Shown here: in pieces, positions 14,600-42,855 of the stretch
Layout: each line of letters opens with the position of its first letter
Position numbering within the stretch: position 1 is the first letter of the stretch
Assembly: GCA_001643675.2 (NCBI GenBank)
Contig: LSRY02000008.1
Location: 868,001 to 932,000 of the forward strand
Length of the DNA: 64,000 nt
Origin: Monocercomonoides exilis PA203
Lineage: Eukaryota > Protista > Preaxostyla
Direction of reading: 5' to 3'
Translations under genes and position numbers: made by a program
Notes under the pieces: generated by a model
Databases searched by the model: none
What the model saw: only the letters and a program-made list of their open reading frames with translations
Told to the model about the DNA's origin: nothing

Positions 14600-16063
14600 C
14601 GGAGTGGGTGCAAATGACAAATACAATATTGAATTCTCCTTCAGACTTGGGATTGACTCTTATCTTTGCAAGCTAAAATATCATAACTTTAGCAGGCATC
14701 ACAAACACGCTTGGCAATAGATTTCTTGCGAATTGTGATCGATCCCTACATGCCACACCTCCAACTGCCCTCTTGTCACACTGAACAGCTCTCCAGTTGA
14801 TGATGGAAAAGAAAGTACTCCTGTTCCAATCGAAGTCTAATCTTTACCCGTTCCAATGACTGAAATCTTCTTTGTCTCAATATCAATTGTTGCTGTCTCG
14901 CTTGTGTGATTCCCGTCCATCAGTGTAACTGACAGGCTCACTTGAATCACGCTCTTTTCAACTGCAACACCAATGGTTCGGCATGCACTTGACTCGTTCA
15001 ATCCACACAACTCTTATTCACAGCCGCCACTCACAGCCACAAATCGATTGTGAATCCCTCTCTTCAGCCATTCCTTCTTTTCTGTGTGCTGAAATGTCCA
15101 ACCCGTTGAACTCGAATAATCATGTCCATAACACACTCTCTTCTCGTCTGTGTTTGTGGTGTAGCATTCATAGAACGGATTTCCTGAACCCAAATAGAGA
15201 TTGTATCTGTCCTCGTAATGGATGTCATCTCCATATGATGGATCACTTAAACAACTACAGTCATGAAAGAAAAGGAAAAAGAAATACAGTTTGTCACTTA
15301 GCAACACTTCTTTCCATGGAGAAAAGAACAATCCGCCTCCTTTTGTTGATGCTGTACACGAAGGAAACTGAATACTCCTCATTTTGAATTGCGTTGCATG
15401 AACAGTTTTGCAAAACATACCTCCACCATTAGCATTTTCAACAAAGCACAAAGTGAAATTGCAGTCAAACACACACGAGCTCCTTCCTTCTCCGTCTTCT
15501 TCACCAATGCATCTAGATCCTGAAACCTGAAAATTCACCAATCTCAACCCTCCTCCATCGTGGTGTGCCTTACAATTCTGGAAGTCACATCCGCTGACAA
15601 GGGCACATGAACGAATTTCGCAAGCATACACCCCTCCCCCGCCATAGTTTTGTGCTGTGCACGAATTGAACACGTTGCTCACCATTTTGATCGTCTTGAT
15701 TGCATGGCACATGACTGCTCCCCCATGGTAGTATGCAGCGCAGCCATTGAATGAACAATGAGAAACAGAAAGTTCTCCAGAATTGAGATTGTACATGCAG
15801 ATGGCACCTCCACTCGACATTCCATCCGACCATGAGCCACTTTCTCCTGTTGTCCTCGATCCACTCCACTCGCACCAAGTGAATGTATTCGCTCCATTAT
15901 CCGTTGTATTCTGTCTCCCTGGAGTCATCTTTCTATCTGCAGTTCCAGTGCATTCAACATCTCTTGTTCTGCAACATCCAATGAATGAGGTGTTTGAGGC
16001 AGTTAAAGAGGCCAAGGGGTTGTTGAGAATGAACAATCCCGCCATCATATGCATCACAAACAA
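14600..16063 (-). pseudogene. Fragment of pectin-lyase-like/PMP-type beta-helix surface protein
   Basis: 349-aa ORF with repeated GGA(I/V)/GGG…C.F..C.A motifs. The frame continues past the 15014 stop as ELCGLNESSACRTIGVAV…, with further stops. Confidence 0.75.
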
Positions 16064-21346: not shown

Positions 21347-23988
21347 AGACCTATTTTAGTTAGAATCAATAAATTCAAATATGTTAACTCAATTTCAATT
21401 ACCTTCAACTTATCCAAATTTGCTTAATCTAATTCGAATTCCCTTAAACTTTTTTTTGGTTAAAAGGGCAATTTTATGATCAACACAAAATGATCGCAAG
21501 TTTTTGTTTTTGAGCATTTTTCACTAACTTTGAATGAAAACTGAACAAAAGATTATGGCTCATCATTAAAAAGAAATGTGTGTAATCAATTATTAAAAAT
21601 TTTTGAGTTTTTTCTGTAAATTTTTCTTAAATGTGACTTTTTTTATTATTGATGTATTCTCTTTCACATACACAAGCTTTGCATATTGCTATATGTATTG
21701 GATGATCCATTTTAGCTTTTAACGAGATTCAAATTGTATTTTCTTGAATTTTTTTGCATTTTGCAATATTTTCATTTCAACTTCAATTTTTATTGGCTAT
21801 GAAATAATAAAGAATGAAAATGAAGCTTAAGTTTAAAAATTTTTTTCTTAAAAATAAAACTAAAGAAAAAATCTTATAATTCTAAAAATTCTTTTTCCTT
21901 TTTTTTAAAAAAAGAGAGAAATGAGAAAGAAAATTGGTGAAAGTTTATTAAGAAAAATTATAATGATTATAATGGCCTTCATGTGGTTATTTGAATATAG
22001 TGATTGTTATTTTGTTTGACTATGATTTTCATTGGATGAGAAAGAAGAAGATCGTGCGCAAGATAAGTTTGAATCTGAAAATGCAGAAGAATCTGATTGT
22101 TGAGAAAATAAATGATGAGTTGAAATTAATTGCAAAGACGAAATTGGAAAGTTTGACAGTGGTTGAGTAGAAATTATCGTATCATTCAGTGAAGCTTGAG
22201 AAGAATATTGTGTATTTATTAGGGGCAAGGTGGAATTCGATAAATATTGATCAGATGAAGAAGTCGGCTTCCGCAGACGAGTTGATTCCCATTGATCTTG
22301 AAGAAACCAAGAAAAAGGGCAACTTCTTGTATCGTCGTTTATTCTTTCTCTTTCTTTCAAATTTTCTTCATTTCTTTCAGATTTATTGAAATTGACAGTT
22401 TATCTTTTTTCTTTTTCTTTTTCTTTTTCTTTTTCTTTTTCTTTTTCACTTTCTTTTTCTTCAAAAGTTGAATCATCATCTATTTCTATTTCTTCTCTTT
22501 CTTCTAACTCCAATAATGAATGTTTTTGTTTTTTCTCTTGATCTGAATGCATGGAAAATCGTTTGCAGTATGGGTCGTCTGATTCTGTTGATTCTTCTAA
22601 AAATGATAAATAATGGTAATATGAAAGTGAAAAAATGTTCTTTTCATGCTCAAAAGAACAATGTGTGTGCAAAAACAAAAACAAACCAATTCTTTGGATT
22701 GACTTTGAATATTCAAAAGTTGAATTCTCATTTGAAAGATTAAGTTTTTTTCTTTGTCTTTTTAGACATTGCTCGTTCGCTTTCTTTTTCGCTTCCTTTT
22801 TTTGATAAAATTGAGTGTGAAGTTCGTAAATAATCAACTCGTTTGCTTCGCAATCTGATTTCGTTAAAGGATTGTGTAAAATGTGAAAATTGGTTAAACA
22901 AACTGAAACAATAAAAAAATCTTCAACTGTTTTAATATCCATAGGCCAATTTCTTCTGAACACAGTAAATAAAGTCTTTAATCGTCCAAAAAACTTTTCC
23001 ACAATAACCCTGTGCTTCGATAGATATGGTGTTCCATGTGGTTTTGTAACAATAGCTCCCAGTTCTGCTTTTGCTCCCATATAGGCTGAGTCTGCCATGA
23101 TTTTGGAACCTTTGAGATGTTGAGAGAAGGTTGGATAGTGATTTTTGAATATTTCGTAGTCATGAACGCTTCCTGGGTAAAAATCGCTGATTGTGCTGGC
23201 TAATCCGTTCTTTGGATTGACTCCAATTTCAACTTTAACACAGTAAGAATGATGTTTTCCACTAAAAAATTTCATTCCATCTGCCAATTTTCCACTTGGC
23301 CTGTTAATAGGCACAATTGCGCAACCCATAATTAGACCAACCTCTTGTAACTCTTTAATTCTATCTTTACGAAAAAACAAAAAAAATTCACAACTGTATC
23401 TTTTATGTTTCCAACTATGCTGTGTAACAACTGCGTTACTGAGTTATGTGATTTGTATAATGGATAAGTCAAAAGTTCTGTCATTGATGTTGAGCCCAAA
23501 TGAAGGAAATTGAGTAAAATAAAAAGTTGTTCGTCGATATTTTGAATTGCCTTTTGCTTTCCACGATGTTGAGGTAATTCGTAATCAAGAAAAAGAAGCA
23601 ACATATCAAATTCTGTTCTTGTGAAACCTGTCAAGCGGAAAAATCCGTGAATGGGATCTTCGCTTTTTTGACAAGCTTTTTCTGTTAAGGAATTTTTTTT
23701 CTCTTCTGGAGTTATTGGCGTATGCGTTGGAAGCGTTATTCTTTTTTCTGCTCGCTCAAGAACCTCCAAAAAATTCAATCGTTCCATGACAAATATTTAT
23801 TTGCAAAATTTCAATTGATCTTTCACCATTTTTTGTTCAATCAACTTTATGATCAATAAACCAGTATTTGAAGTTTTGAAATTGATTGAGTCATTATGAA
23901 AAAGAATTTGTTTTATCGTATTTTTATCAAACTTATTTCAATTTTGTTCCACTTTTTCAAATTGAAAAAATATATTTAAAATAGGTCT
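21347..23988 (-). mobile_element. PIF/Harbinger-superfamily element (Pangu-like), ~2.6 kb
   Basis: 12-bp TIR AGACCTATTTTA at both ends; AAT at 21344-21346 and 23989-23991; internal DDE_Tnp_4 transposase. Confidence 0.85.
22400..23787 (-). pseudogene. DDE_Tnp_4 (Harbinger/ISL2EU-type) transposase, one frameshift
   Basis: FFRLTGFTRTEF and EQLFILLNFLHLG (HTH region); FFSGKHHSYCVKVE, PGSVHD, IMADSAY, RVIVEKFFGRLK. Frameshift in A-runs at 23372-23386; the first catalytic position reads G (IMGC). Confidence 0.85.
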
Positions 23989-25479
23989 AATAACAAACAT
24001 GTAAAACTTGCAATTTCTATTGATTCAATAATCCTTTTATTCAAAATCAAAATTTTTTTTCGACATTGAATCGTCATAGAAATAATTTCTGTTTTGAAAA
24101 TAAGTTAAAAGAAATTGAATCACACGAGAGATTGATCTATTCTACCGACTGACCTTTCGACAGACTGATCTTTGTCATTAGACTGATCTCGACAAAGATC
24201 TGTCGATAACCCATTTTTATAGCGTTTTTGGTTATTTTTCAGAAAATTATTTTTTATCAAAAAAAGTTGTTAATTATCAAATGAAATATGAAAATTATTT
24301 TTTTCTTCAAAAAAATCAATAGAAAAAGAGATATATTGAAATATCTTTAAAAATTACAAATAAAAAAGTTTAGAATCTGTCTTGTCGGTCGACTTGTCGA
24401 GGTGCTTTGTGACAAGTCGGCTTGTCTCAAAGGCCTACTCAAAACATCACATATAACGAAAACAAACAATTAACAAACGAAATATGCAAGAATTAAAAAT
24501 TGCAGTAAAATGTGCATATTCCGGTTCTTCTATTAATTTTGAATATTAAGTTCAACACAATTGAATGATAAATTGTGTAATCATATTATTTCAACAAACC
24601 AAAAAAAAAAAAAAAACTGACAAAAATACTCTGAATTTTTCTTCCAGCTGTGATTAGCAATTAATTCTTATTTGTTTGATGATTTTTTTAAAATGAAAAA
24701 TTGCTTTTGTGAAGTGATGTCTCTTTGAAAGAATAAATATTTTTCGTAAAAAAAATTCAAAAATGATTTCATGTTTTTCATCTTCTTATTGAGTCTGTTA
24801 ATTCATGATTCATGTTAATAACAATCAAATCAATGAAATCACTGTTCAAGAATGTTATCTTTCATTGAGGTTGTTGAAGATTTTCATTTGTTGATTATTA
24901 TTGGTGTTCATCACAACAATAGATGAATTGTGAATAGAATTTTTCTATTTGAATAGATTCAACTTATTTAAATGAACTGGGTTTTTCTTAAATGAAGTCA
25001 TGTTATTTTAAATGAGTGAAGTGACACTTGAATAAAGTGCGATACACTCAAATAAAGTTTTTTTGAAAAAATGGTAAACACTAATTATAAAATTTTTACG
25101 TTTTATATTTCACTTTATCAATAAAATAAATTAAAAAATCCAAAATAATTGTGATTTTTCAATATTCTCAAACATAATTTGAGACGTGTTAAAAGAAGAT
25201 TTTATTTGATAGAAACGACGTGAAATGAAAGAAAAAATGAATTTGTTCTCGTTTTTATATCCTGTTTTTTCTCATTAACAAAATATTTGATCATCACGTA
25301 ATTAAATATCTTAAATAAAAATTTGCTTCAATGAATGTTCATGGAGCGATTTATCACTGATATTTTCCGTAGTACTGAAGCGCGAAGCTGAATACATGGG
25401 TTGATGCAGCTTTCGATATCAACTTTCTATATTTACGGCTTATGAATCAATTATTTCATCAGATTTTTATTCAAAAAGC

Positions 25480-26400
25480 CACACTTGATTCTTCTTTAAT
25501 AAATCAGTATCTGCTTTCATCCACTGAGCGTCAGAAGAAATCCTTATCGTCACCATCCCAAACTCCTTCGGATCCTTTCTGCTGTTATCATTCACAATAT
25601 CTTTCTAATCTTCGGCTTCATTTTTTTCCTTCTTCCTCAAACAGCCAAAACAACAATGACTACAAGCAGTAATACAACAACCTCAATGCAAACAATCAAC
25701 TACCAATACGATTTCCCTTCTTTTCCTCCTTCAACAATCCTTTCATCCCCATTTGTTTTCGGCTCACTTCTCTTCTTCAGAACAAATGCATCAGTTGCAG
25801 ACAACCGCTTCCCAAACAAAATCATCACAAACACCTCTGTTTCATCCAAAGCCAATGAAATATTCTCTGATGGAACTCTTCCAATCACTTCCGTTTCTGA
25901 AACAAACCCATCTTCTTTAAAATGATATGTCTCAATCAGGTCTGTATCTCCAGCTGATAAAAACAGTCGGAATGACAAATCACATGGCAGAAGAAGCGCT
26001 CCATTGAATTGAATTTCAGTTCCACCTCCATTTTCGCTGGCAGAAGCCCCTTCCAGCTTGGGAATGAAGAAGGGCAATTCCCTTTCTCCTGCCATCCCTT
26101 CCAGGCTGCATCCATCATCCAGAATCCACAACGAAGAATTATCTTTCACCCCATCTCCTACCTTCAAGCACGAAATAGTCAGCGAAGCAGAATCGAAGCA
26201 GATGATATTATTCGGAGTAAACAATATAAAAAAAATGGATTGTGGTGAAAGAATTATCCTTTCTCAATCGTCACATTTCCAGCCAAGATCGACAATTCAC
26301 AAACGAAGAATTAGAAATTGAAGCTCCTTTGTTATAATTGCTGAATTTTTTTGATGGACAAGAGAATTATTCTGCACAAACAAATCTTCTAATCTTTAAG
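25480..26400 (-). pseudogene. C-terminal fragment of a large single-pass surface protein (cargo)
   Basis: 174-aa ORF ending EGGKEGKSYW*, followed in frame by LIVCIEVVVLLLVVIVVFGCLRKKEKNEAED*KDIVNDNSRKDPKEF: a TM segment plus cytoplasmic tail, with premature stops. Confidence 0.65.
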
Positions 26401-27801
26401 CTTCATCTTGAAAATGAGAAGTGAAGAAACAAAAGCTTCCAGCAAACAGATTTGTTCACACTCCAGCGAAAGAGCAGAACAGCATCAACAAAGCTATTTT
26501 TCTTTTGGTGTATCAACTACAACCTGAGAATGAGCAGTTATTCAAAAAAATCGATGTATTTAGAGAAATCAGCCATTCTCTCTAAGGAGAATTCGAATGA
26601 ACAGAAATGCAGCTGCACAAAATTACTGACAGCTTCATCTCTCTTCTCATTTTATTGTCAGCTCACATCCTTCTTCTCATCATATCTTCTCCGACAAAAC
26701 TTTTCAAAGTTCTGATCTCCAAAAACGGAACCTCATGAATCACACATCATTTTGAGGCCTATGAGAAATTGAAGCAAATTATGCCACAATTTCACATGAT
26801 CTGCCTTGAACATTTTCGCTGATCCGAATTCATCGACTTTTTCCAACAATAAGTTGATTCTTGAAATGGAATTTTGGAACTTCGTTATTACACCTTCTCC
26901 TTTGCAGCACATGAAGATGACCAGGAGCCTGTGAAAATAACCATTTTTTATGGAAAAAAGGACACAAGGGGAAAAAGAATGTGAAAAAACAATATAATTT
27001 CGAATGAGCTTCTGAAAATTTTGAAACAATTGAATAGACCTTAACTCACAAGGAAAACAATCTATGTATTTCACATTTGAGTATTGCTTTATTCGTAAAA
27101 CTGATATACGTTACGAATAATTAGAAAATTCGTTCAACGTGTTTTTAACAATTTTGAGCATTCGATATTCTGGATGCACCTCAATATTAATTTACTAATT
27201 TGTCTTTATTTTCAATTTGTCAGAAATGAATGAGTCTGGTGAGCTAAACTCAATCAACTTTACAAAAGCAATATGTGTTGAACTTTTATTTGACTTTTTG
27301 TTAAACTGATCATGTTTTTTTGGAGATTCTCTCAATATGATATCTTTTCAAGAAGATTTTAACAAATACTAATGATGTATCTCGATTTAAATGTTCTCTG
27401 GGAAAGTTGGAATCATTGTTCAGTGCTGATGTTTCATTTTCCCCATAATTTTGTAAGAATTTTATCTATTTCGAATAATGTCGTTATTGTCTGGCACAAG
27501 CTCAATTGCTTTCTTTGGAATTCCTAGAGATGATGAAGTTTCACACATTGGAAGGTTTTCATTTTGAATTTTTCGTATTGTTGACATTTGTACAAAAATA
27601 TGCAGGGAAAAGAATGTGGAATGTCCATCGTTTGATCAAAACGTTTTTAAATTTAATGCACACTAGAAAAATAAATCCTGTGAAAGTCTTTCCCAAAATG
27701 AAGATAATTCATCTCATCAACAAACTGTTTCATCAACATCAAATGTTCTGAATGTTGCTAATCATACAACACCATTTGTTAACAACGAAACAAGAGAACA
27801 T

Positions 27802-29386
27802 TTGAATTCAAAAATTCAAAAAACTTCAGATAGTCCTTCTATTAAAGAGTCGCCTTCAAAATATACTCTGAATTCAACAAAAATCAAAGAGAAAAGATAC
27901 AAAAAAATGAAGCAATCTGTTAATCTGCGGAATGAAAAGCCGAAGCGGAAACAGCCGGATTTTGACGAAATGCAGGATAGGAAAACAAAACAATTGGAAA
28001 AAATAGAAAAGATTGATATTAATGAAGATAAAGAGAAAAAAATAGAATCACTAGGATTTATCACTGATCATTATCTTCGTTTCACCTATGATGAGCATTT
28101 ACGTTTACCGAAAACAACAATTGTTGAACTTGTAAATTTGATAAAATCCATTTTGAATAGCGCACCGAAAAAAGGGCCTCCATCAACACTTTCACCACAT
28201 GATAAGCTTATAGTGTATCTTGAGTGGCTGTCCAGCAGGACGACCTTGGAGAGGATTTCCTCTTTAATGGGTATATCTCAATCAATGGCAAGCAATTGTT
28301 TGACTGATATACGTCCCGCATTGCTTTCTGCGTTGAATGAAATTTTTTCCACTCCACCTAGGCCTCCAACAATTCCCAACGAAGAATTTCCTAATGTTGC
28401 TTTGTTAGTCGATGCAACGACAATCAAAGTGCCATATCCCATTTCTACCACATTCACCGAAGGGAAAAAACTGTTTGATGCACATCATTCAGTTTACTGC
28501 ATCAAAAACGAAGTGGCGGTTTCATCTTGGAAACCTCACAAAGCCTTATTCGTTTCTGACGCGATTGAAGGAGGAAAACATGATGTTTTTCTGTTTCGAA
28601 AAGGAATGAAAAGATATGAGGAATATATGAAAAAAACCGATGAAGAAAGAATAAGGAATTATCATGATTTAAGGAATGATAGCTGGGTGATCATGGGAGA
28701 CAAAGGATATCAAGGACATTTCCCAAACATTCGATTGATCACTCCCATCAAAAAATGTTTTATCCAAGAATTGACTTCCGTAAAATTTTCATCAGAAATA
28801 GCCAAGCTTCCTTCTCCTCCTCGTTCTCCTTCTCCTCCTTCCTCTCCTCCTTCCTCTCCTTCTTTTACTTCTCCACAACAACTCCCTTCACTCCCTGCAC
28901 CTCCTCCGCTTCCTCTTATTCCTCAAACTGAATCGTATTCCACTTTCCCTGAATGCTCCCAAGCTTTCACCCAACTTCCTTCTGATTGTTTTCCTGAAAC
29001 AATGAAATCAACATCACAAGCCTTGTCACAACTTTCATTCATTGATTCTTCCATTTCATCATTAACAAAAAGCGCATCATCATCATCAACGACTGAATCC
29101 TCTAGCTCCATATTCGACCAACTCACCGAACAAGAATTGGATTCTCTGAGTATTGATGAATTCAACAAGAGCATTGCAAGATGCCGTATTCCTGTTGAAT
29201 GGTTTTTTCGGCCGGATGAAAAAGCTTTGGCTCAGACTTTCTGATACCTACTCAGGAGGCAGAGAAAACGTTGGAACAGATGCAAAAATAGCAAGTTGGT
29301 TGACTAATTTGGTTATTGACTATCACAGATTGGAAGATGATGATGGTAAATTTTATAAGAAAACAGAAGTGTTTGAGTGTTATTAA
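27802..29386 (+). CDS. DDE_Tnp_4 transposase with HTH; single frameshift near the C-terminus
   Basis: LSPHDKLIVYLEWL…ISSLMGISQS (HTH), LLVDATT, HHSVYCIKNE, GGKHD, IMGDKGY, RIPVEWFF/GRMKKLW. One extra T in the T6 run at 29203-29208. Confidence 0.85.
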
Positions 29387-30137
29387 GAAAATGAAAGAAA
29401 GAAAATAAGAGATATTAATACACATGCAAACACCGAAAGAAAAGCAATTCGAAAAACTTCATTTATGTAACAATTTTTTATCATTGGCTTTTGAAATATT
29501 TCGAAAACAAACGAAAATACAGGAGCACGATTTCCAACTCATATTTTTATGTACGACAATTGCATTTTTGTGTCAAATTGAACAAAGGAATGGAAATTTC
29601 ATTTATTTCTTGATGAGATTCATTTTTCTGTTGTTCTATTTCTATACCTCAAAAGATTAAGATAAAAAACATTCTTGTTTTCTTCGAATGATTTATTTTA
29701 ATTTCAAAGACACAAATGCTTCACTAATTTTATCATATTGCACAAAAGAAAAGAAAAGTCAAGAAAAGAAATAAACAATTTTAATTAATTGTTGAAGAAA
29801 TGAACAAATGATTTTTTATTATTCGCAAAAAGTTATTTGGCATCGAAAAATGAGATCTTGATTTTTATTTACAAAATAAATTATTTGACGAAAATAACAA
29901 AAATAATTTCCAAAACAATATTTTCAATATATAAATAATATTTGAATGATTTTGCAATCAACTAATTTTGTAATTTATTTGTTTATTTTTTCCAAAATTT
30001 CTCGAAGCTCAAATGAACTCAGTCTAACTCAAATGAACTCGGTTTATTCAAACAAACTCGATCTATTCGAACAAACATGAGTTCATTTGAATAAACCTAG
30101 TTTATTTGAATAAAAAAAATCTATTCAAAATTCATCT

Positions 30138-33100
30138 AATGAAAGATTTCTCATTGCACAAAATATTGATTCCATGATAAATCACTGTACCGATAAAAAC
30201 AATTCATTCTATGATGGAAAAAGAAGATAAACTTGTTGTTCACTTGATGAATGTGCTCCATAATAAAATAATGCCGAGGATGATTTGCCTGTTTTTCGCT
30301 TTGCTGGGGGCGCTGAGGGCTGCGGAGCGTGGGCAGGGGCAGGGGCAGCGGAACTACCTGCAACTGCGCGATGGGGAGCTGCCTCGTATGTGTGCGTTTT
30401 GGTTGGCGTCTTGCCGCGAAGTGGCGATGAAATGACTTTTGATGTTTTGTGTGATTTGTGTGATTTTTTTGGGTTGGGTGGGAAGAGTGGTACAACGTGA
30501 CGGTGCAGCAGGACAAGGGGCGGGAGTGCCTGGAGAGGGCGTTTTCGGGGTATGACTGCGGGAAGATGACGCTGCAGGAGAAGCTTCGGCTGACCATCAA
30601 GCTGCTGAACTGCTATGGGGACGAGATGGGTTTGGCTTTTCTGTTTTTTCTATTTCTTGGGGGTTTTTGGGATTTGGGGTGGGAATGATTGGGCGATTGC
30701 TGGCGGGGCTGTGATTTGCAGGGCTGAAGCCGTACCGGTGCGCAGACAGCTGGGACATTTCGGTGTGCATGAAGAAGCTGAACGACGAAGAGAAGTCGTC
30801 GATCCGGGACAAATCGCTGACGATAGGTTTGGGTCATCTTTGTGTTCTGTGCTGTAATTGTTTTGTTTTATTTGACTTTGTGACTTGTGGTTCATTGTGT
30901 GTTGGAGGCAGACAGTGTTTGCTATTCGTTCAAAAACGAGACGGTGATGCAGCGGATAAGCATGCTGGTGGATCGGGTGGTGGCGGGGAGCGAGGAGACG
31001 CTGGAGCAGCTGTACAGCCTTGTGGAGACGTCGCAGTCGGTTTTTGAAGCGACGAAGGAGTCGGTGGAGATGCAGGCGCAGCTTGCTGTGCAGCAGGAAG
31101 GGATGAAGGCGGAGATGAAGGGGATTGAGGAGGAGCACCAGAAGCAGAGGGAGCTGATCCAGAAGGGGTTTGGGGAGATTGGGGATGCGACTGGTTTGGT
31201 TCACAGCTGTATTTGATTGAAGAAAGTGAAATCAATGAAATTTATCTCTCTCTCTCTTTTTTTTGTTTTTTTCAATTTTCATTGTGAAAGAGGGGATTAA
31301 GGAGAAGATAAGTGAGTCGGTGAGGGAGACGAAGGAGCTGGGGGCGGTGCAGAGGGAGGTGTGTGAGGAGCAGAGGAGGTGGGCGGCGGGGATGAAGGAG
31401 CAGCTGTCGGGGGTGGCGGAGTCGGCGGGGGAGGTTGCGGAGTGGATGAAGGCGGCGGCGGCGGGGCAGGCGAAGATGGAGGCGGCGGCAGCAGCGATTG
31501 GGGCAGGGATAGGGGCGGTGGGGCAGATGCAGCGGGAGGCGGAGGAGGCGCTGGGGCGGATAGGGAGGGAGCAGGAGGGGATGAAAGGGGTGCAGGCAGA
31601 GACGCGGGAGGAGCAGAAGAGGATGAGGGCAGAGATGGAGATGGTTTGGGAGAGCTCATCAAATTCATTTTATTATCCTTTTTTATTCCTCTTTTATTTA
31701 TTTTTTGACAGTCGTTTGACAGCATAGCGCACCAGCACAGGAGCCTGCAGAGGCAGATGGAGGAGTCGGTGGAGCACTCGGAGCAGATCTTGGAGCAGCA
31801 GAGGCGGGCGGTGGCAGAGATGGAGGGGGTGATGGCTGTGCAGGGGAAGGCGTTTGAGGAGACGGTGAGGCAGCTGGTGGACATCCGGAGCGACACAACG
31901 GTGTGGGTGGTGAGGGTGGTGAGGATGGTGAGGATGGTGAGGGTGGGAATGCTATTATTTTTCTTCTATTTCTTTTTTTGTGGGAGAGAGAGAAAAAAAA
32001 CATAAAGAGTGAAAATGCTTTGTTTTCTTTGTCATTTTATTTCTCTTTTTCTCTTTTTTCTTTTTTCTTTTTCATTTCTTTTTGTTTTTGTTTTTGTGGG
32101 GGGAATGGAACATGGGAAGATGGTGACGGAGAGGCTGAGGCAGCAGAATGAATATCTTCGGACAGAGTTTTCGTCAGTGCGGGTGTGGATGCAGCGGATT
32201 CTGAGTGGGCAGTCATCGATTTTTGGTTTGAGGCAAAAGGAAAAGAAAAGAAAATTCAAAAATATTTTATTTATTTTATTTTTGTATGTTTTGATGATTT
32301 GTGCATTCGCAGCTGACTTGAGTGGGCTGCACAGCATTGCGTTTTATGTGGCTTGTCTGCTGTTCTTCCAGCTGGTGACGTCGCTTCCGCACACAAAAGA
32401 GGCACGAATATGGATATTTTATTGTTTGCCTGTGAAGAAATGAGAGGAAAGAGAGAGAAAGAGAGAGAAAGAGAGAGGAAGAGACTGCTTTCCATTCATG
32501 TTCATTTTTATTGTATTTTTCTGTTCTTCTTCTTCTCATTCGATTTCGTTCTTCTTCTCTTTTGTGATTCATCTTAAACAATGACGAAATATGGAATGGA
32601 GTGTGGGTGGTGTTTTTTGTGGGGGAGCGAGGGATTTTGTGGGTTGTTGGCAGGAGCGGGGCAGCGGCAGAGGAGATGAGGCGGTTTGCAGGCAGCTGGC
32701 ACATGCTGTTTGTTTGTTTGTGTGTGTGTGCTGTGGGGCATGCGGTGTGGACATACAAAGACTACGAGGCGCTGAACAACACCCTTCTGAAAGAGAACTG
32801 GAAGAAAGCGAGAGAACTGACGAATGCGGTTGGTGATGCTTGGAATATATTTCATCTTCTTCAATAATGTCTTCATCTTCATCTTCATCTTTCTTTTTTC
32901 TTTTTTATTTGTTTTTGTTTGTATTCAGTTCCGATTCTATGCAGATGAAGTGAGCCGGCTGAAGAGGCAGGAAGAGGATGGGCAGCGAAGAGGAAATGGG
33001 CAGTGTGGGGGAAAGAGAAGGAAGAAAGGGGAGAAAGAAGGGAGTGTGTGGATTGGGAGGAGTTTTGATTCATTTGGGTTTCCATCAGCAAAAGAGAAGA

Positions 33101-33729
33101 GAACAACATTTGATGAACACACATCATCATCATCATCATCTTCTTCTTCTTCTTCTCCTTCTCCTTCTCCTCCTCTTCCCCCTCATCCCTATCTGCATTT
33201 TTATCCACTTCGCTCTTCTTCTCACTTCAGCCAATTCGACGAGGATTCATTTGCTTTTGAGAGAAACACGAGGAGAGCTGCTTCTGTTTGAGAAAGAGAA
33301 AGAGAAAGACAAACAATTTATTTATTTCAATTTAATAGAAATGGAAATGGAAATAAACATTCAATGAAATATCAGGAGAGAAAGAAAAAGAAAAAAATGA
33401 AGAAATCAGATAATTTTGCCTGTTTGCAGTTTTTGTGTTGTTTTTATGTTTGCTGCTTGGACAAACGCATTCAAACCTCATTTCATCCATTCTCAAATGT
33501 TTATTGCTTGTTTTGTTAATTTTTGCATTTTTGGAAGAGAAAGTTGCATTGTTTTGTTTTTGAAGGATTGCAGCAATTATAAAAAAGATGAAACAAACGA
33601 TTTCGAACAGAACATTCCACAAACAAGAAGAAGCTGTTTGTTTTTGAATGAGAAGAAATTGTTTGCTGTTTGGGGTTGTTCAAATGAAGTGTTTTATTCT
33701 TGTTGCATTTTCTTGTTCATGAAATGATT
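30138..33729 (+). repeat. Left arm of large inverted duplication (plus displaced outer part ~24725-24920)
   Basis: Reverse complement of 39075-42660; the ORF track is mirror-symmetric. Confidence 0.97.
30271..33291 (+). CDS. GEX1: GEX1/KAR5/Brambleberry-family nuclear membrane fusion protein, copy 1 (multi-exon)
   Basis: Signal peptide MPRMICLFFALLGALRA. Spliced exons (30271-30385, 30486-30629, 30722-30826, 30912-…) give the Cys-rich domain CLERAFSGYDCGKMTLQEKLRLTIKLLNCY…PYRCADSWDISVCMKKL…IDSVCYSFKNE. This is followed by a long coiled coil, TM segments (SIAFYVACLLFFQLVTSLPHTKEARIWIFY; LFVCLCVCAVGHAVWTYKDY) and a cytoplasmic tail. Confidence 0.88.
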
Positions 33730-33959
33730 GAGATGCAAAAAAACTGAAATGTTCAAAAAAAAAATTACTATTTTATTTATTTGATAAAAAAAGAAAAGAA
33801 AAATAGAATGCCAATAAATGCACAACTAACATCCCCTGAACGAAATCTTCTTTTCTTCTGTTTCAGAAAGAAAAGAAAAGAAAAGGTAATAAAAAATGAA
33901 TATTTTCTTTTAAATTGAATAAATGCAAAAAGGGTAATTCCTCCTCCTCTTTTTTCTTT

Positions 33960-36900
33960 CTATTCTTCTTTTTCTTTTTCTTTTTCTTTTTCTTTTTCTT
34001 TTTCTTTTTCTTTTTCTTTCTCTTTCTCCTCTCCATTCCCAAACAACAAACGCAGTTGTTGTTTTCTCCAATCAAGTTCTTCTTCTTCCTCCTCTTCCTC
34101 TCCTCTTCCTCCTCCTCTTCCTTCTGTATTCACATAACTTCCATCTTCACCACTGCTACTGCTGCTACTACTGCTTCTTCCATCGTTATTTCCTCCTTCT
34201 TCTCCTTCCTCTTTTTCTCCATCTTCAATATCTTCTCCTTCTTCTCCTCTCTCCTCTCCCATTCCCCTCCTCCTCCTCCCTCTCCCCTTCTTCCCATTCG
34301 CCCTGTTCTTCATCCCAAACACACACAGAACAAACCCCAATCCAAATGGAATGAAATAGTTCTCAGAAACACTCCGGACAAACGAAAGCGCCAAAAACGG
34401 CTCAAAAAAGACACGAACACGCTGCCTCGCTTCTTCACAGCTGCACTTCAGCACAAACACGAAGTACTTCGCATAATAATATGGCTTGTTTTCGGGTGTA
34501 TAACAGCCTGCCAGCTCGAGCAGCCTGAGAATTGCCTCTTTCTTCTTGTAGCGCACGACTTCCGGTGAACGAGGAGAATGAGAAGAAGAAGAGGAAGAAG
34601 AAGAGGAAGAAGAAACAGAAGGATGATTAGAACTCAACCGATGAGGAACGAGAACAGTCAGAAATTCGCCGAGCACCTCGCGTGTTGTGTTCTCGTTCAC
34701 CAATTCTTTCGACTCGTCTTCGATTTTCTCTGCCAATTTCCCTTCAAAATGCTCTCTTCTGATCACATCCTGCCCAAACACCACGTCGGCCTCTCCATCT
34801 GCCACCATCTCAACCAGCCGCAGCAGACTCAGGCTCCTCACAAGCTTCTCTGCTTTCTCTGCTTCCCCATTTTCCTTCATGACAATTGAGAAGACAGAAA
34901 GAAGGCGCATTCTTCTGCCCCTTCTGAACGGATTGAAATGGCAGAAGAATCGCTTAATCTTTGAAGTGAATGAATTTGAAGAAGAAGAAGATGAAGAAGA
35001 TGCAAATGATGAAGTGATTTTACCAGAATTATCAGCATCAACAGAACAAGCTCCCAAACCCAACTGAACTGCCTTCAATTCCTTCTGATCTTCTTCTTCT
35101 TCTTCTTCTTCTTCTTCTTCTCTTCTTCCTCCTCTTCTCCCTCCTTCTCTTCCACCATCTCCAAACACATCCCACACCATCCTCAGCACCTCGTCGTCGA
35201 TTCCCTCTGGCCAGCTCTTCCACGGCTGCAGTCCTTTCCCTATCTTCTCCCACAAACTCTTCGGCTTCTCAAACATTCTGTACACCTGCACCACTTCCTC
35301 CTCCAGCGGCCTCACTTCTCCAAAACTGAACTCTTCTGCCACATCTGCGTTGGAGTAGAACGGATGGTACGAAAAGGAACGGAGCTCTGGCGAATGGTGA
35401 AGATGCCGCTTTGAGTGGGGGCTGGGAAAGAGAATGTGCTTGGGAGAAGAAGAAGAGGAGGAGGAGAAGGAAGAAGAGGAAGAAGAGTGAGAAGAAGAAG
35501 AAGAAGAAGATGTTGTTGTTGAAGATGAAGATGAAGTTACATTTGTTTTTTCTGTAGTTGAATTCGTTTTCTTCACTTTGTTGCTATCTTCCCTTCTCCC
35601 TTCTTCCTCAGTGCTGTTTGTGGAAACTTGAACAAAAATCGATTTGACTTCGTCTCCAAACAGAAACTGTCTTTGCAGCTGTGTCTTCACATTGGGATGA
35701 GAAGAGCTTGCAATCTCATACAGCTGCAGCGCATCAGAAACATACGAATCAATCAAAATTTTCATTTTTCTCATCTTCTCTTCTTCTTCCCTTCTCTTTT
35801 TTGCTTCCATTCTCAACTCATTTATTGAATTATCCTTCAACTTCTTCTCTTCTTTCTCTTTCTCCATCTCTTTCTCCATCTCTTCCATCTCCTTCCTCAT
35901 CTCCCTTGCTTCTCTCCTCATCTCATCTGCCAACAATACCATCGCCACTCGATGTCCCTCACACGCCGCTTGCAGAAGCAGCTGCCCCGCAGACAACGAC
36001 CCCACACACGGAAACCCCAACGGTGAATCCAATGGGAAGAGAGAAGAAGAAGAAGAAGAAGAAGAAGATAGCGATGAAGAAGAAGTTGAAGAAGTTGAAG
36101 AGAAAGAGATAGAGTCTGAAGAATGAAATGGGCTTTCATTTTCGTTCTGATTTTTGTTTCCATTCAAATTTTGATGTTCACTTTGTTTCCCCTCAACTCC
36201 ATTCATTGTCATTTCCCTCTTCTCCTCTTTCTCCCTCAAATCTCTTTCTTCTCCTTCTCTTTCTCTTTCTCTTTCTCCTTCCCCTTCTCCTCCCCCTTCT
36301 GTTAGTAACATCTGCTTCAGCAGTTGTCTGTCTGTGTTGAGTCTGCTGTTGAGTGAAGACAGGCAAATGTCTCCAGCAAGTGCCATCGCATCAGCCATGC
36401 CAATGTCAGCGAGTGAGAGCAGAGAGAAGAACGAGGTCCATTCTTTGGCCTGTTGGAGGGTGTATTGCTTGTGGAGGATGGAAGAAGAGGAAGAAGAGAA
36501 AGAAGAAGAAGAAGAAGAAGAAGAAGAAGAAGAAGAAGAAGAAGAAGAAGAACTTGTAGAAGAAGAGTCATAAGAATCCCTCACTGAATCAGCCTCCCCC
36601 ATCTCTTTCTGATTTCTCTCTCTTTCAAATGCCTCAATATACTCCTTCTGTGCGAGGATGTGGTCAACAACCATCCCATCAGCCACAATGGATGATGCAG
36701 CATTAACCGATTCACACAGAAGAGCGTGATAAGCAGGCGACATCTTCAGCAGGCTCATCAGCTGTGCCATCGCCTGTGAATAAAGCACACTCGACTGAAG
36801 AGACTCAGAAAGAGTGCAGTATGGATGGCTCCTCAGTGCTTCCTGCACAGAAAAGGAGGAAGAAGAAGAGGAAGATAAGTTATTTCTTCCATTTTTATTG

Positions 36901-38126
36901 ATTCTGCCTTCTTCTTTTTCTTCTTCTTCTTTTCCTTCTCTCTTGCTTCCCCTTTGCCACACAGCTGCTCCTTCCTCTCTGAGCGACAGGCGCATCTGCT
37001 CCTCAAACAGCTGCTTCGTCACAAACACATTCGCCAGCCAGTATTTCGACCAGACAGAGCCAAAATAGTTGAATGCATTCTCTTCAATGTACTCACACGC
37101 CAGCTGAAGTGCGGCCTGCAGCAGCTCCACATCTGAAAGCTCTGTGTCTTCTGTGGTTGGGCCTTTGAAGTCTTCTTTGTTTTCTTCTTTGCTTTCTTCT
37201 TTCTCTTTCTTTTTCTCTTTCTCTTTACCTTTCTTCTCTTTGACATTATTTGTCTGTTCATTTGCTTGTCTCTGCTCCTTTGTCACATGCTGTGTAACAG
37301 AGTTGAAAGTGGTTGTTCTGTTTTCCTTTCCCTCTGCCGTGTCAAAAAGGCTGCTGTTCTCCTTCAACAAGGAGGGATAGCAGTATAAAAGCACTCCCAG
37401 CATAAAGTTCTTCTTCGCCGGAAAAAGCGTCTCTGTCTGCAGCATCGCAAACACTCGCTTCACAGCCGGCGGTGGCGCCTCGTCCAAAATGCTTCCGTCT
37501 TCCCACTTCGCAAAGAACACCGCTGCCCCGTCAGGCACCAGCCACCCGAAGCCTTCTCTCCACAGCTCTGCCAGCGCAATCATGTCCTGCTTCGGAAAGT
37601 CATCTTCTGTGCCCTCTTTCGCAAAGTGCGCGGTGGCTCGCCCGAAGTCGATGCGGTCGCTGCCGATGCCGTAGAGATGGTACATTCCGAAGAACCGGTT
37701 GCGTTTCATGCTGCCCAAATAGTCTTTCTCTTCGGTTGCTCGAGAGAATGAAGGTTCCACTCCAGCTGTCTGTATCGCAGTGAAAAATGCATCTGCACCG
37801 CTTTTCTTCTCACTGTCATAAAATTTGTAGTATGCTTGCTTGTTCTTTTTCAAAGCCGATCGAAATTTGGCAGACTTGTTCGCGATAAGTTGAAAATCAA
37901 TGCAACTGTCAACTTCCATGGATTGATCAGCATCACAAGGTGGAATAACTCCCAGCCAGGAATAAAATGATGTGTATGTTGGAACAAAGGCCATGTTCAA
38001 AAGTGTAGAACGCGCCAAGTTCCTCATATATAAAAATGAAAATAAAAGATCATGATCATTATTTCTAATCAAAAAGGGATTATGCAAAAGATGAGAGGCA
38101 AAAGAAAAAGAAGCTTCAGCGTTCAT
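33960..38126 (-). CDS. Large membrane protein with divergent SEL1-like repeats (HRD3/SEL1L-like?); probable extra 5' exons up to ~38450
   Basis: 1388-aa open frame with motifs GMYHLYGIGSDRIDFGRATAHF, DMIALAELWREGFG, ADIGMADAMALAGD, AACEGHRVAMVLLAD. It has a C-terminal hydrophobic segment (YFIPFGLGFVLCVFGM) and poly-Ser/Glu inserts. Confidence 0.55.
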   Translation of the reverse strand: MNAEASFSFASHLLHNPFLIRNNDHDLLFSFLYMRNLARSTLLNMAFVPTYTSFYSWLGVIPPCDADQSMEVDSCIDFQLIANKSAKFRSALKKNKQAYYKFYDSEKKSGADAFFTAIQTAGVEPSFSRATEEKDYLGSMKRNRFFGMYHLYGIGSDRIDFGRATAHFAKEGTEDDFPKQDMIALAELWREGFGWLVPDGAAVFFAKWEDGSILDEAPPPAVKRVFAMLQTETLFPAKKNFMLGVLLYCYPSLLKENSSLFDTAEGKENRTTTFNSVTQHVTKEQRQANEQTNNVKEKKGKEKEKKKEKEESKEENKEDFKGPTTEDTELSDVELLQAALQLACEYIEENAFNYFGSVWSKYWLANVFVTKQLFEEQMRLSLREEGAAVWQRGSKREGKEEEEKEEGRINKNGRNNLSSSSSSSFSVQEALRSHPYCTLSESLQSSVLYSQAMAQLMSLLKMSPAYHALLCESVNAASSIVADGMVVDHILAQKEYIEAFERERNQKEMGEADSVRDSYDSSSTSSSSSSSSSSSSSSSSSSFSSSSSSILHKQYTLQQAKEWTSFFSLLSLADIGMADAMALAGDICLSSLNSRLNTDRQLLKQMLLTEGGGEGEGEREREREGEERDLREKEEKREMTMNGVEGKQSEHQNLNGNKNQNENESPFHSSDSISFSSTSSTSSSSLSSSSSSSSSLFPLDSPLGFPCVGSLSAGQLLLQAACEGHRVAMVLLADEMRREAREMRKEMEEMEKEMEKEKEEKKLKDNSINELRMEAKKRREEEEKMRKMKILIDSYVSDALQLYEIASSSHPNVKTQLQRQFLFGDEVKSIFVQVSTNSTEEEGRREDSNKVKKTNSTTEKTNVTSSSSSTTTSSSSSSSHSSSSSSFSSSSSSSPKHILFPSPHSKRHLHHSPELRSFSYHPFYSNADVAEEFSFGEVRPLEEEVVQVYRMFEKPKSLWEKIGKGLQPWKSWPEGIDDEVLRMVWDVFGDGGREGGRRGGRREEEEEEEEEEDQKELKAVQLGLGACSVDADNSGKITSSFASSSSSSSSNSFTSKIKRFFCHFNPFRRGRRMRLLSVFSIVMKENGEAEKAEKLVRSLSLLRLVEMVADGEADVVFGQDVIRREHFEGKLAEKIEDESKELVNENTTREVLGEFLTVLVPHRLSSNHPSVSSSSSSSSSSSHSPRSPEVVRYKKKEAILRLLELAGCYTPENKPYYYAKYFVFVLKCSCEEARQRVRVFFEPFLALSFVRSVSENYFIPFGLGFVLCVFGMKNRANGKKGRGRRRRGMGEERGEEGEDIEDGEKEEGEEGGNNDGRSSSSSSSSGEDGSYVNTEGRGGGRGEEEEEEEELDWRKQQLRLLFGNGEEKEKEKEKEKEKEKEKEKEKEE

Positions 38127-39074
38127 TGAAGAAGCAAATACATTAAATCCTAGTGCCTTTAATATATATAAAAAAAGATGATTTTTAAATAGTTAGAAAA
38201 TTTCATTCAATTTATGTTTTTTGAAAATATTGAAATTTTAACAAACATTCATGGGATTATAAGTATAATGCCTCTGTGAAAATGGTAGTATTCTATCATG
38301 TTCAATTCCATGCAAAAATGCCAATGCTCCAAATTGCTCAGAATATCCTTTATCCAACTTTTTATTTAGAACTTTCAAAACATTTAATTGATTGGAAATT
38401 GGGGTCAACTTTACGTCATTTTATAAATAAAAGCACAGAGGAGCAAATTGTATAATGATTTATATCACAAAATACAATTATTAAAATATTCTTAAAACAA
38501 AGCAAACGATGAAAGGAAAATGTCGAAATTGAAAATCAAATTTCGAGGATTTTCCAACTAAAAGTGTCTCCGATTCTATTTTTTGAAAAAAGAAAAAAAC
38601 AATAAAAGCGGAGAAAAACATGATTCAGAAAGATTATTATTATTTATTTTGATAAATAATGATCATGCTATAATGGTTGCAAGTTTATTCAAGTATGAAA
38701 ACAGTTTAATTGAAATGCATATTTTTGTTTATGAAAGGGCTTGAATCAAATGAAATTATTTGCAAAATAGATATATCATCATTGGATTGAAACTTTGTTT
38801 TTCAAAGAACTTTAATCAAGCGAATAATTTTTATTAGGGAATTTTAAAAATGTTCACGCAAAATTTGAAAATAGAGTCAAACAAGAATCATTCAACTTCA
38901 ATCATTATGTTTCAATCAAAATTTGCAAATAAATATTGTGACTTTAATGTTTATCTTCATTTCTAAGTCACAACGCATGTTCAGATCGTGAGCACATTTC
39001 TTTTCCACACAAAACAAAGAGTTTATTTTTCATGTTGAACCCTCTTTTTGTGATTTATTTATTATTTTTTGATT

Positions 39075-42000
39075 AATCATTTCATGACAAGAAAATGCAA
39101 CAAGAATAAATCACTTCATTTGAACAACCCCAAACAGCAAACAATTTCTTCTCATTCAAAAACAAACAGCTTCTTCTTGTTTGTGGAATGTTCTGTTCGA
39201 AATCGTTTGTTTCATCTTTTTTATAATTGCTGCAATCCTTCAAAAACAAAACAATGCAACTTTCTCTTCCAAAAATGCAAAAATTAACAAAACAAGCAAT
39301 AAACATTTGAGAATGGATGAAATGAGGTTTGAATGCGTTTGTCCAAGCAGCAAACATAAAAACAACACAAAAACTGCAAACAGGCAAAATTATCTGATTT
39401 CTTCATTTTTTTCTTTTTCTTTCTCTCCTGATATTTCATTGAATGTTTATTTCCATTTCCATTTCTATTAAATTGAAATAAATAAATTGTTTGTCTTTCT
39501 CTTTCTCTTTCTCAAACAGAAGCAGCTCTCCTCGTGTTTCTCTCAAAAGCAAATGAATCCTCGTCGAATTGGCTGAAGTGAGAAGAAGAGCGAAGTGGAT
39601 AAAAATGCAGATAGGGATGAGGGGGAAGAGGAGGAGAAGGAGAAGGAGAAGAAGAAGAAGAAGATGATGATGATGATGATGTGTGTTCATCAAATGTTGT
39701 TCTCTTCTCTTTTGCTGATGGAAACCCAAATGAATCAAAACTCCTCCCAATCCACACACTCCCTTCTTTCTCCCCTTTCTTCCTTCTCTTTCCCCCACAC
39801 TGCCCATTTCCTCTTCGCTGCCCATCCTCTTCCTGCCTCTTCAGCCGGCTCACTTCATCTGCATAGAATCGGAACTGAATACAAACAAAAACAAATAAAA
39901 AAGAAAAAAGAAAGATGAAGATGAAGATGAAGACATTATTGAAGAAGATGAAATATATTCCAAGCATCACCAACCGCATTCGTCAGTTCTCTCGCTTTCT
40001 TCCAGTTCTCTTTCAGAAGGGTGTTGTTCAGCGCCTCGTAGTCTTTGTATGTCCACACCGCATGCCCCACAGCACACACACACAAACAAACAAACAGCAT
40101 GTGCCAGCTGCCTGCAAACCGCCTCATCTCCTCTGCCGCTGCCCCGCTCCTGCCAACAACCCACAAAATCCCTCGCTCCCCCACAAAAAACACCACCCAC
40201 ACTCCATTCCATATTTCGTCATTGTTTAAGATGAATCACAAAAGAGAAGAAGAACGAAATCGAATGAGAAGAAGAAGAACAGAAAAATACAATAAAAATG
40301 AACATGAATGGAAAGCAGTCTCTTCCTCTCTCTTTCTCTCTCTTTCTCTCTCTTTCCTCTCATTTCTTCACAGGCAAACAATAAAATATCCATATTCGTG
40401 CCTCTTTTGTGTGCGGAAGCGACGTCACCAGCTGGAAGAACAGCAGACAAGCCACATAAAACGCAATGCTGTGCAGCCCACTCAAGTCAGCTGCGAATGC
40501 ACAAATCATCAAAACATACAAAAATAAAATAAATAAAATATTTTTGAATTTTCTTTTCTTTTCCTTTTGCCTCAAACCAAAAATCGATGACTGCCCACTC
40601 AGAATCCGCTGCATCCACACCCGCACTGACGAAAACTCTGTCCGAAGATATTCATTCTGCTGCCTCAGCCTCTCCGTCACCATCTTCCCATGTTCCATTC
40701 CCCCCACAAAAACAAAAACAAAAAGAAATGAAAAAGAAAAAGAAAAAGAGAAAAAGAGAAATAAAATGACAAAGAAAACAAAGCATTTTCACTCTTTATG
40801 TTTTTTTTCTCTCTCTCCCACAAAAAAAGAAATAGAAGAAAAATAATAGCATTCCCACCCTCACCATCCTCACCATCCTCACCACCCTCACCACCCACAC
40901 CGTTGTGTCGCTCCGGATGTCCACCAGCTGCCTCACCGTCTCCTCAAACGCCTTCCCCTGCACAGCCATCACCCCCTCCATCTCTGCCACCGCCCGCCTC
41001 TGCTGCTCCAAGATCTGCTCCGAGTGCTCCACCGACTCCTCCATCTGCCTCTGCAGGCTCCTGTGCTGGTGCGCTATGCTGTCAAACGACTGTCAAAAAA
41101 TAAATAAAAGAGGAATAAAAAAGGATAATAAAATGAATTTGATGAGCTCTCCCAAACCATCTCCATCTCTGCCCGCATCCTCTTCTGCTCCTCCCGCGTC
41201 TCTGCCTGCACCCCTTTCATCCCCTCCTGCTCCCTCCCTATCCGCCCCAGCGCCTCCTCCGCCTCCCGCTGCATCTGCCCCACTGCCCCTATCCCCGCCC
41301 CAATCGCTGCTGCTGCTGCCTCCATCTTCGCCTGCCCCGCCGCCGCCGCCTTCATCCACTCCGCAACCTCCCCCGCCGACTCCGCCACCCCCGACAGCTG
41401 CTCCTTCATCCCCGCCGCCCACCTCCTCTGCTCCTCACACACCTCCCTCTGCACCGCCCCCAGCTCCTTCGTCTCCCTCACCGACTCACTTATCTTCTCC
41501 TTAATCCCCTCTTTCACAATGAAAATTGAAAAAAACAAAAAAAAGAGAGAGAGAGATAAATTTCATTGATTTCACTTTCTTCAATCAAATACAGCTGTGA
41601 ACCAAACCAGTCGCATCCCCAATCTCCCCAAACCCCTTCTGGATCAGCTCCCTCTGCTTCTGGTGCTCCTCCTCAATCCCCTTCATCTCCGCCTTCATCC
41701 CTTCCTGCTGCACAGCAAGCTGCGCCTGCATCTCCACCGACTCCTTCGTCGCTTCAAAAACCGACTGCGACGTCTCCACAAGGCTGTACAGCTGCTCCAG
41801 CGTCTCCTCGCTCCCCGCCACCACCCGATCCACCAGCATGCTTATCCGCTGCATCACCGTCTCGTTTTTGAACGAATAGCAAACACTGTCTGCCTCCAAC
41901 ACACAATGAACCACAAGTCACAAAGTCAAATAAAACAAAACAATTACAGCACAGAACACAAAGATGACCCAAACCTATCGTCAGCGATTTGTCTCGGATC

Positions 42001-42855
42001 GACGACTTCTCTTCGTCATTCAGCTTCTTCATGCACACCGAAATGTCCCAGCTGTCTGCGCACCGGTACGGCTTCAGCCCTGCAAATCACGACCCCACCA
42101 ACAATCGCCCAATCATTCCCACCCCAAATCCCAAAAACCCCCAAGAAATGGAAAAAAGAAAAGCCAAACCCATCTCGTCCCCATAGCAGTTCAGCAGCTT
42201 GATGGTCAGCCGAAGCTTCTCCTGCAGCGTCATCTTCCCGCAGTCATACCCCGAAAACGCCCTCTCCAGGCACTCCCGCCCCTTGTCCTGCTGCACCGTC
42301 ACGTTGTACCACTCTTCCCACCCAACCCAAAAAAATCACACAAATCACACAAAACATCAAAAGTCATTTCATCGCCACTTCGCGGCAAGACGCCAACCAA
42401 AACGCACACATACGAGGCAGCTCCCCATCGCGCAGTTGCAGGTAGTTCCGCTGCCCCTGCCCCTGCCCACGCTCCGCAGCCCTCAGCGCCCCCAGCAAAG
42501 CGAAAAACAAGCAAATCATTCTCGGCATTATTTTATTATGGAGCACATTCATCAAGTGAACAACAAGTTTATCTTCTTTTTCCATCATAGAATGAATTGT
42601 TTTTATCGGTACAGTGGTTCATCGTGAAATCAATATTTTGTGCAACGTGAAATCTTTCATGGCTGTGATGAAAACCAAAAATAATTAAAAAAAGAAAAAC
42701 TTCATCAACCTCAATGAAAGATAATATTCTTGAACAATGATTTCATTAACTTGATAGTTATGAACATGAATCATGAATTAACAGACTCAATAAGAAGATT
42801 GAAAAACTTGAAATGATTTTTGATTTTTTTATTAAAAGTTTGAAAATTTCTTCAA
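39075..42855 (-). repeat. Right arm of large inverted duplication
   Basis: 39075-42660 mirrors 30138-33729; 42660-~42855 mirrors ~24725-24920 with more mismatches. Confidence 0.95.
39512..42528 (-). CDS. GEX1: GEX1/KAR5-family protein, copy 2 (multi-exon)
   Basis: Mirror copy of 30271-33291; exon-spanning ORF translations are identical (e.g. 41074-41538 vs 31263-31727). Confidence 0.88.

Follow-up and report, generated by a model that had tools for sequence, protein, structure and literature searches.

Probable patchy concerted evolution of an inverted pair of GEX1-family genes in Monocercomonoides exilis

Introduction

Palindromic gene pairs under ectopic gene conversion have been reported in Drosophila for Hsp70Aa/Ab, Hsp70Ba/Bb and Amy-p/Amy-d, where the conversion was proposed to follow double-strand breaks (PMC3924832). 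A pair of similar shape, two copies of a GEX1-family gene, was found in a stretch of 64,000 nucleotides from Monocercomonoides exilis PA203 (the window; all positions are counted from its first letter). As in the Drosophila Hsp70 and Amy pairs, the paralogues are linked mirror images with diverged flanks, apparently homogenised by conversion, but the Drosophila case rests on orthologues and shared polymorphism (PMC3924832) and the GEX1 case on one haplotype. Homogenisation of Amy was confined to the coding sequence, whereas in the GEX1 pair it also takes in the introns and 400 bp of 3' flank (PMC3924832).

The palindromes of the mammalian Y and X chromosomes are comparable in their inverted arms, unique spacer, "pseudo-diploid" single-copy DNA and a gene tied to reproduction (PMC8600007). 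Their arms are longer than 10 kb and more than 99.9% identical, while the GEX1 arms measure 3.8 kb and are 99.25% identical with islands of 10% divergence (PMC8600007); in addition, no sex chromosome is known in M. exilis, and one of its two arms is broken by a transposon. The GEX1 arms work like a sex-chromosome palindrome without being a member of that class, for which arms of more than 10 kb and more than 99% identity are required. The mosaic paralogues GOT1p1/GOT1p2 of Tigriopus also keep islands of divergence among converted tracts, but those islands can change the protein, whereas the exon differences of the GEX1 pair are all silent (PMC3728101). In parthenogenetic animals, few palindromes were reported, with no clear genome-wide role (PMC7953838).

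The GEX1/Kar5/Brambleberry family is defined by an N-terminal signal peptide, a six-cysteine N-terminal domain, one or two coiled-coil regions and hydrophobic segments near the C-terminus, together with a location in the nuclear envelope and a role in nuclear fusion; from Brambleberry it was reported that action of the family extends beyond gamete fusion (PMC4291462). Gex1 has been reported in metamonads, in which sex was not directly observed (PMC8516963). No mention of a GEX1 duplication in Monocercomonoides was found, the term being absent from the main texts of PMC10703272 and PMC6759080 and from the supplements of PMC8767320; the supplement of PMC6759080 or other papers may mention it.

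Arms, spacer and transposons

Comparison of the window with itself gave one large inverted repeat, in which 30139-33729 was matched to the reverse complement of 42660-39075 (99.25% over 3591 columns), and an outer piece, in which 24750-24915 was matched to 42830-42664 (89.8%). Thus the 24750-33729 arm (arm A) was cut in two by a 5.2-kb transposon and the 39075-42830 arm (arm B) was intact, each arm being 3.8 kb long, and the two were arranged tail to tail about a unique spacer of 5345 bp (Table 1). Eroded homology outside the arm ends was considered and rejected, as none above shuffles was seen in three of three comparisons: the 200 bp past the outer end matched no better than shuffles (fraction 0.118), and the same was true of the 200 bp past the inner end (fraction 0.894). 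The original prediction had the arms reaching 24725 and 42855, which was not supported, since the sequence beyond 24750 was at shuffle level.

Table 1. Positions of the arms, genes, transposon and tracts at the GEX1 locus in the window
Feature	Position	Strand	Remarks
Arm A, outer piece	24750..24920	+	About 11% diverged from 42830-42659; separated from the core by the transposon
DNA transposon, 5217 bp, arm A only, PHIS/Pangu-like	24921..30137	+	Ends AGATGAATT...AATTCATCT
Transposase ORF of the element	27667..29244	+	DDE_Tnp_4, E 6e-5, 23.2 bits, below the cut-off of 24.8
Arm A, core	30141..33729	+	25 differences from arm B: 21 substitutions, 4 indels
Diverged island adjoining the transposon end	30141..30185		6 substitutions in 45 bp; 13% at neutral sites
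GEX1-family gene, copy A	30211..33291	+	10 exons, 9 GT-AG introns
Diverged island, intron 2 and exon 3	30642..30807		8 events on 98 neutral sites; 7% at neutral sites
Identical tract, 676 bp, with introns 3 and 4	30808..31483		0 on 286 neutral sites
Diverged island, exon 5	31484..31626		5 synonymous substitutions on 35 neutral sites; 14%
Longest homogenised tract, 2065 bp	31627..33691		0 substitutions on 1277 neutral sites
Unique spacer, 5345 bp	33730..39074		From self-comparison
Spacer ORF, 1410 codons stop to stop, low-complexity	33960..38192	-	Weak Sel1-repeat lead
Arm B, unbroken	39075..42830	-	From self-comparison
GEX1-family gene, copy B	39512..42588	-	Protein equal to that of copy A; shorter start at 42528

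The ORF of the spacer looked intronless, with runs of Ser and Glu and a hydrophobic segment close to the C-terminus. Its Atlas lead to Sel1 repeats scored 0.85 only, no Pfam family was matched at cut-off, and neither a homologue nor an annotated form of itself was found by word-based protein search.

The two ends of the transposon in arm A formed a 9-bp inverted match, AAT was present on both sides (24918-24920 and 30138-30140), and the empty site was preserved in arm B. The Pangu group of PHIS transposons was reported to have ANT target-site duplications and terminal inverted repeats beginning with AG or GG (PMC4482050), and with AAT on both sides, the end AGATGAATT and the empty site, the element is probably Pangu-like, its features matching those of this group. 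The C-terminal motif of its transposase went on in another frame, with the change near 29205 at a T run, which could be either decay or a long-read homopolymer error. The transposon lies 70-130 bp upstream of the start codons of copy A, and may alter or silence this copy.

Further transposon-related and repeat-bearing sequences were also present in the window. A second DDE_Tnp_4 transposase (22400-23796, minus strand, E 7e-21) was divided between two ORFs that overlap, at a distance of 1 kb from the arm end. At 12644-17297, a 4.65-kb element was bounded by terminal inverted repeats of about 310 bp (77% identical) and flanked by an 8-bp direct repeat; it is likely another cut-and-paste transposon, and its ORF of 355 codons (15017-16081) gave no Pfam match. 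An ORF of 421 codons at 62354-63616 (plus strand) carried internal tandem repeats with periods of about 45 and 90 bp, and no Pfam family was matched at cut-off.

GEX1-family gene

Copy A encoded a protein of 684 aa from the ATG at 30211, or of 664 aa from the ATG at 30271, and after splicing of the 10 exons in each arm the proteins of the two copies were identical. The 664-aa form equalled residues 21-684 of a public M. exilis protein named putative GEX1 and located on a 1.96-Mb contig. As this protein has two accession pairs, annotations of both copies already exist. The public records also included a 50-aa fragment that carried the locus tag of the full-length form, which suggests that an older annotation held just a partial model of the gene.

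Cysteines C73, C83, C101 and C145 were invariant among the aligned homologues, and C113 and C122 were conserved in at least nine of ten. A single-sequence structure model of low confidence (mean pLDDT 49.5) predicted unbroken helices at 169-293 and 300-411, and coiled-coil Pfam matches were weak only. In the 664-aa model, hydropathy rose above 1.6 in three peaks, which began at about residues 430-440, 466 and 499-502. At the N-terminus, where a signal peptide would be expected, a short hydrophobic stretch followed the second ATG, with no 19-residue window there above 1.6.

An Atlas feature score of 0.95 was obtained to GEX1 and Tht1-like clusters. By phmmer, 182 matches were found at E <=0.001, with oxymonad and Paratrimastix proteins at the top, including a Paratrimastix protein that UniRef names GAMETE EXPRESSED 1 (E 2e-27); the nearest GEX1 orthologue was 27% identical. 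Word-based protein searches with the GEX1 protein returned the self-match only. The fungal Tht1/Kar5 family PF04163 was not among the eight Pfam families listed at E up to 10, so the gene is not filed under that narrower family. Assignment to the GEX1/Kar5/Brambleberry family holds on the conserved cysteines, predicted helices, hydrophobic segments and sequence relationship. The six-cysteine N-terminal domain, the long helical middle and the three C-terminal hydrophobic segments are shared with the described members (PMC4291462); what differs here is that two copies with identical protein exist and that the Pfam Tht1 family is not matched. A putative role in nuclear fusion (karyogamy) is likely.

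For the orthologues of Blattamonas, Streblomastix and Paratrimastix, one NCBI accession each was listed, against two pairs in M. exilis. With single accessions in the three nearest orthologues, the duplication may be specific to the lineage, but the sign is weak, as clustering would hide a copy of 50-90% identity. A related locus was also sought in metagenome contigs, with 55 pattern matches and none confirmed. Sampled words of arm A were present to 29-36% in four metatranscriptome runs, where 45-55% would be possible for a spliced transcript, and this result was excluded from the evidence.

Differences between the arms

Divergence was expressed on neutral sites, which comprised introns, flanks and the synonymous fraction. 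The outer arm ends were rich in mismatches, as originally predicted: 19 differences in 169 bp (18 substitutions and one indel) were counted in the outer piece, once a 20th entry, the gap where the element joins, had been set aside as an alignment-end effect, and the 45 bp next to the transposon were similarly affected (Table 1). From 30186 to 30641 the divergence at neutral sites was 0.8%, and 15 differences between the arms were present in 30186-31626, where they were clustered in islands and not scattered as had been described for the 5' half. The near-identity of the 3' core, introns included, was confirmed, since the arms were fully identical over 32062-33691 (1630 bp) and the only differences in 31627-33691 were two 1-bp T indels in intron 6. 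There were 14 substitutions on the 676 neutral sites of 30186-31626 against one on the 1315 beyond (binomial p=2.8e-6). Coding constraint could not explain the longest tract, because the identity takes in introns and 400 bp of 3' flank.

The longest difference-free run on neutral sites exceeded what independent evolution of the arms would give (p=5e-5, 25 events, 20000 simulations), and still did so when events within 35 bp were counted once (p=0.015-0.022). A two-state hidden Markov model with rates of 9.6% and 0 per neutral site reached an AIC of 368.6, compared with 387.7 for a gradient and 442.5 for uniform divergence; in three of three subsets it was ahead of the exponential gradient by 17-19 AIC units and of the uniform model by 30-74. 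When it was fitted to the core alone, the same island rate of 9.6% was returned, close to the value of about 11% in the outer piece. The differences between the arms are therefore a patchwork, in which tracts with zero substitutions alternate with islands that have diverged to the same degree as the outer ends. A smooth gradient was rejected on the better fit of the two-state model, and the gradient along the arms claimed in the original prediction was not borne out, since the divergence of islands within the gene equals that of the ends; uniform divergence, which would have spoken against that prediction, was not found either.

In the core, 18 of 21 substitutions were transitions, and 9 of 21 lay at a CpG in one arm, the CpG observed/expected ratio of the window being 0.69; in the outer piece, 12 of 18 substitutions were transversions. 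GC content was 25% in the outer piece, against 29-48% elsewhere. Cytosine methylation or base composition may lie behind this contrast in spectrum.

A very unlikely explanation of the patchwork is a young duplication that never underwent conversion and in which mutations arose in clusters, through error-prone repair, slippage, CpG decay or multi-base events. The excess of transitions and the CpG contacts just described would suit it, as would some closely spaced pairs (30709/30710, 31484/31487, 32054/32061), but after events within 7 bp were merged 12 were left, and the model without conversion produced the pattern in 0 of 3000 simulations. Moreover, the 11% of the outer piece would need an explanation of its own, and a burst of four to five changes in exon 5 would rarely be synonymous throughout (0.22-0.32 per change).

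Selection on the two copies

All nine exon differences were synonymous (dS 9/456, dN 0/1536). The silence of the visible exon differences had been predicted from five codon pairs, all of which were present, and neither nonsynonymous nor disabling differences, which would have contradicted the prediction, were found. By chance, nine of nine synonymous changes would occur with a probability of 1e-6 to 4e-5, varying with the transition bias, and of 1e-4 to 1.6e-3 if one copy were neutral. In the islands dS was about 0.13 and dN was 0 on 242 nonsynonymous sites, and for this reason the best-supported reading is that both copies were under purifying selection, as had been proposed. Since this evidence comes from the islands, it applies to the past, and the upstream transposon may have silenced copy A since.

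Check of the assembly with DNA contigs

The published long-read assembly of M. exilis was reported to be made with Canu correction at very high output coverage, Nanopolish and ten rounds of Pilon (PMC8767320), and thus collapse of the identical tract had to be tested. Contigs of four DNA runs (X1 to X4) from one sample were compared with 33190-33785, which covers 502 of the 1630 identical bases (33190-33691); these runs may be the source of the assembly, contigs can drop variants, and depth is a rough measure. In run X1, a single contig (depth 203.9) was free of differences to 33691 and forked into the flanks of arm A (81.9) and arm B (89.4), the fork of both flanks being at 33692. Run X3 followed the A flank, X4 the B flank, and X2 both. 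No other letters were seen over 33190-33691 in the substitution table and listed pieces of any of the four runs, where 8.7 hidden differences would be expected at the rate of the 5' half (chance of none about 5e-4). The depth of the shared contig was 2.1-2.4 times that of the flank contigs, and popped bubbles would give about 1.5. Minor contigs of run X2 carried seven deletions of one or two bases inside the checked stretch, which were absent from the other three runs.

Because a single contig path forks into both flanks with no hidden substitution, collapse of the identical tract is unlikely, and the collapse check called for by the original prediction was passed over the 502 bases covered. 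That correction and polishing erased differences in the 3' half, or that two alleles were joined into a false inverted repeat, is extremely improbable. The Canu and Pilon treatment (PMC8767320) and the 1128 identical bases beyond the check would leave room for it, but the absence of other letters, the depth ratio and the fork at 33692 speak against it, as do the extension of the identity to the unique spacer, where reads are anchored, the persistence of differences in the middle of the arms, and the reported monoploidy of the species (PMC6759080).

History of the locus

The patchwork is probably explained by an old inverted duplication, both copies of which were selected, followed by recent and patchy arm-to-arm conversion, which is deduced from one haplotype with the other arm as the presumed donor. 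Neutral sites of the duplication would have diverged by about 10%, with both GEX1 proteins kept intact by selection, and recent gene conversion between the arms would then have overwritten most of the arm sequence in patches. Tracts would stop short of heterology and so miss the ends of the arms, the edge of the transposon and some of the islands within; this fits the divergence that is still present beside the transposon and at both ends. Zero substitutions on 1277 sites would date the most recent copying of the long tract to about the last 2-3% of the time since the duplication (95% bound). The copies are linked inverted paralogues, as is characteristic of palindromic pairs under ectopic conversion. 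Monoploidy, a lack of NHEJ and a fairly complete HR pathway were reported for M. exilis (PMC6759080), which would make the other arm the natural template for repair.

Toy simulations could rank the models just roughly, because their statistics and thresholds were picked after seeing the data. No match to the pattern came from a young duplicate that underwent no conversion (0 of 1500 and 0 of 3000 simulations), and recent bursts of conversion matched in 1.4-8%. Conversion at a constant rate was rejected, with at most one match in 1500 in 12 settings and one in 2000 in five settings (<=0.07%). For mismatch-sensitive ongoing conversion, seven settings led to full divergence (0 of 300 each) and ten further settings matched in 0-0.5%, below recent bursts (1.4-3%); ongoing conversion blocked by mismatch clusters may be a less likely alternative to recent events. 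A single recent event or a small number of them, with mismatch repair acting in patches, would fit better than a constant rate. Two parts of the original prediction stand as the best-supported reading, namely an old duplication (about 11% at the outer ends, 9.6% per neutral site in the islands) and homogenisation of the core by arm-to-arm conversion, but a steady rate for the latter was disfavoured by the simulations.

Against a single shared history of outer piece and core, the share of transitions was 6 of 18 in the outer piece and 10 of 12 in the non-coding core (Fisher p=0.011), and the outer piece was more AT-rich. This contrast would allow separate histories. In a rival explanation the duplication is young and one of its arms received the islands from a diverged allele through outcrossing, by allelic conversion or introgression. 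Such import would yield the same two-state pattern with all-synonymous islands, since a functional allele also differs silently. It is nevertheless unlikely, because the allele would have to differ by about 10% at neutral sites and to have been imported at least four separate times, on both sides of the transposon among others and at arm ends, where leftovers are predicted by arm-to-arm conversion. The agreement between island divergence (9.6%, core only) and outer divergence (about 11%) also argues against it, and the culture was reported as clonal and as monoploid, its SNP density being about 0.04 per kb (PMC6759080). If import were true, the patchwork would be a footprint of sex instead of arm-to-arm exchange.

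Implications

Patchy concerted evolution of the inverted GEX1 pair is real and statistically solid. Gene conversion of inverted pairs is textbook knowledge, and what is new is the case in a GEX1-family gene and in this organism. Its weight lies not in the mechanism but in a likely karyogamy factor in a lineage without observed sex. The locus is also a compact case in which a haploid cell without NHEJ may repair from a nearby inverted copy, and the transposon edge marks where conversion tracts would stop.

In the flip-flop mating-type systems of the yeasts Ogataea and Komagataella, inversion takes place between inverted repeats. The GEX1 locus resembles them in its kilobase inverted repeats, a gene-bearing spacer, the highest identity beside the spacer and a sex-related gene. 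However, no mating-type transcription factor was recognised in the spacer ORF (no Pfam family at cut-off), and a flip would swap identical GEX1 halves and take along the spacer gene's own upstream region. On anatomy as its sole support, it is a decidedly improbable proposal that the arms are both a self-repair safeguard and a flip switch for the 5.3-kb spacer gene as a mating-type-like cassette of hidden sex. The mirror copy would then serve to repair a rarely used karyogamy gene where no homologue exists, and the 5.3-kb orphan gene would be flipped between two orientations by crossing over within the 2 kb of identity beside the spacer.

The presence of the gene alone would be weak evidence for sex. 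The islands (dS about 0.13, dN 0) provide a within-genome test, by which the protein was under purifying selection in the lineage. Purifying selection on the GEX1 pair supports a retained, putative role in nuclear fusion, giving a hint that M. exilis still maintains a likely sex gene in intact form.
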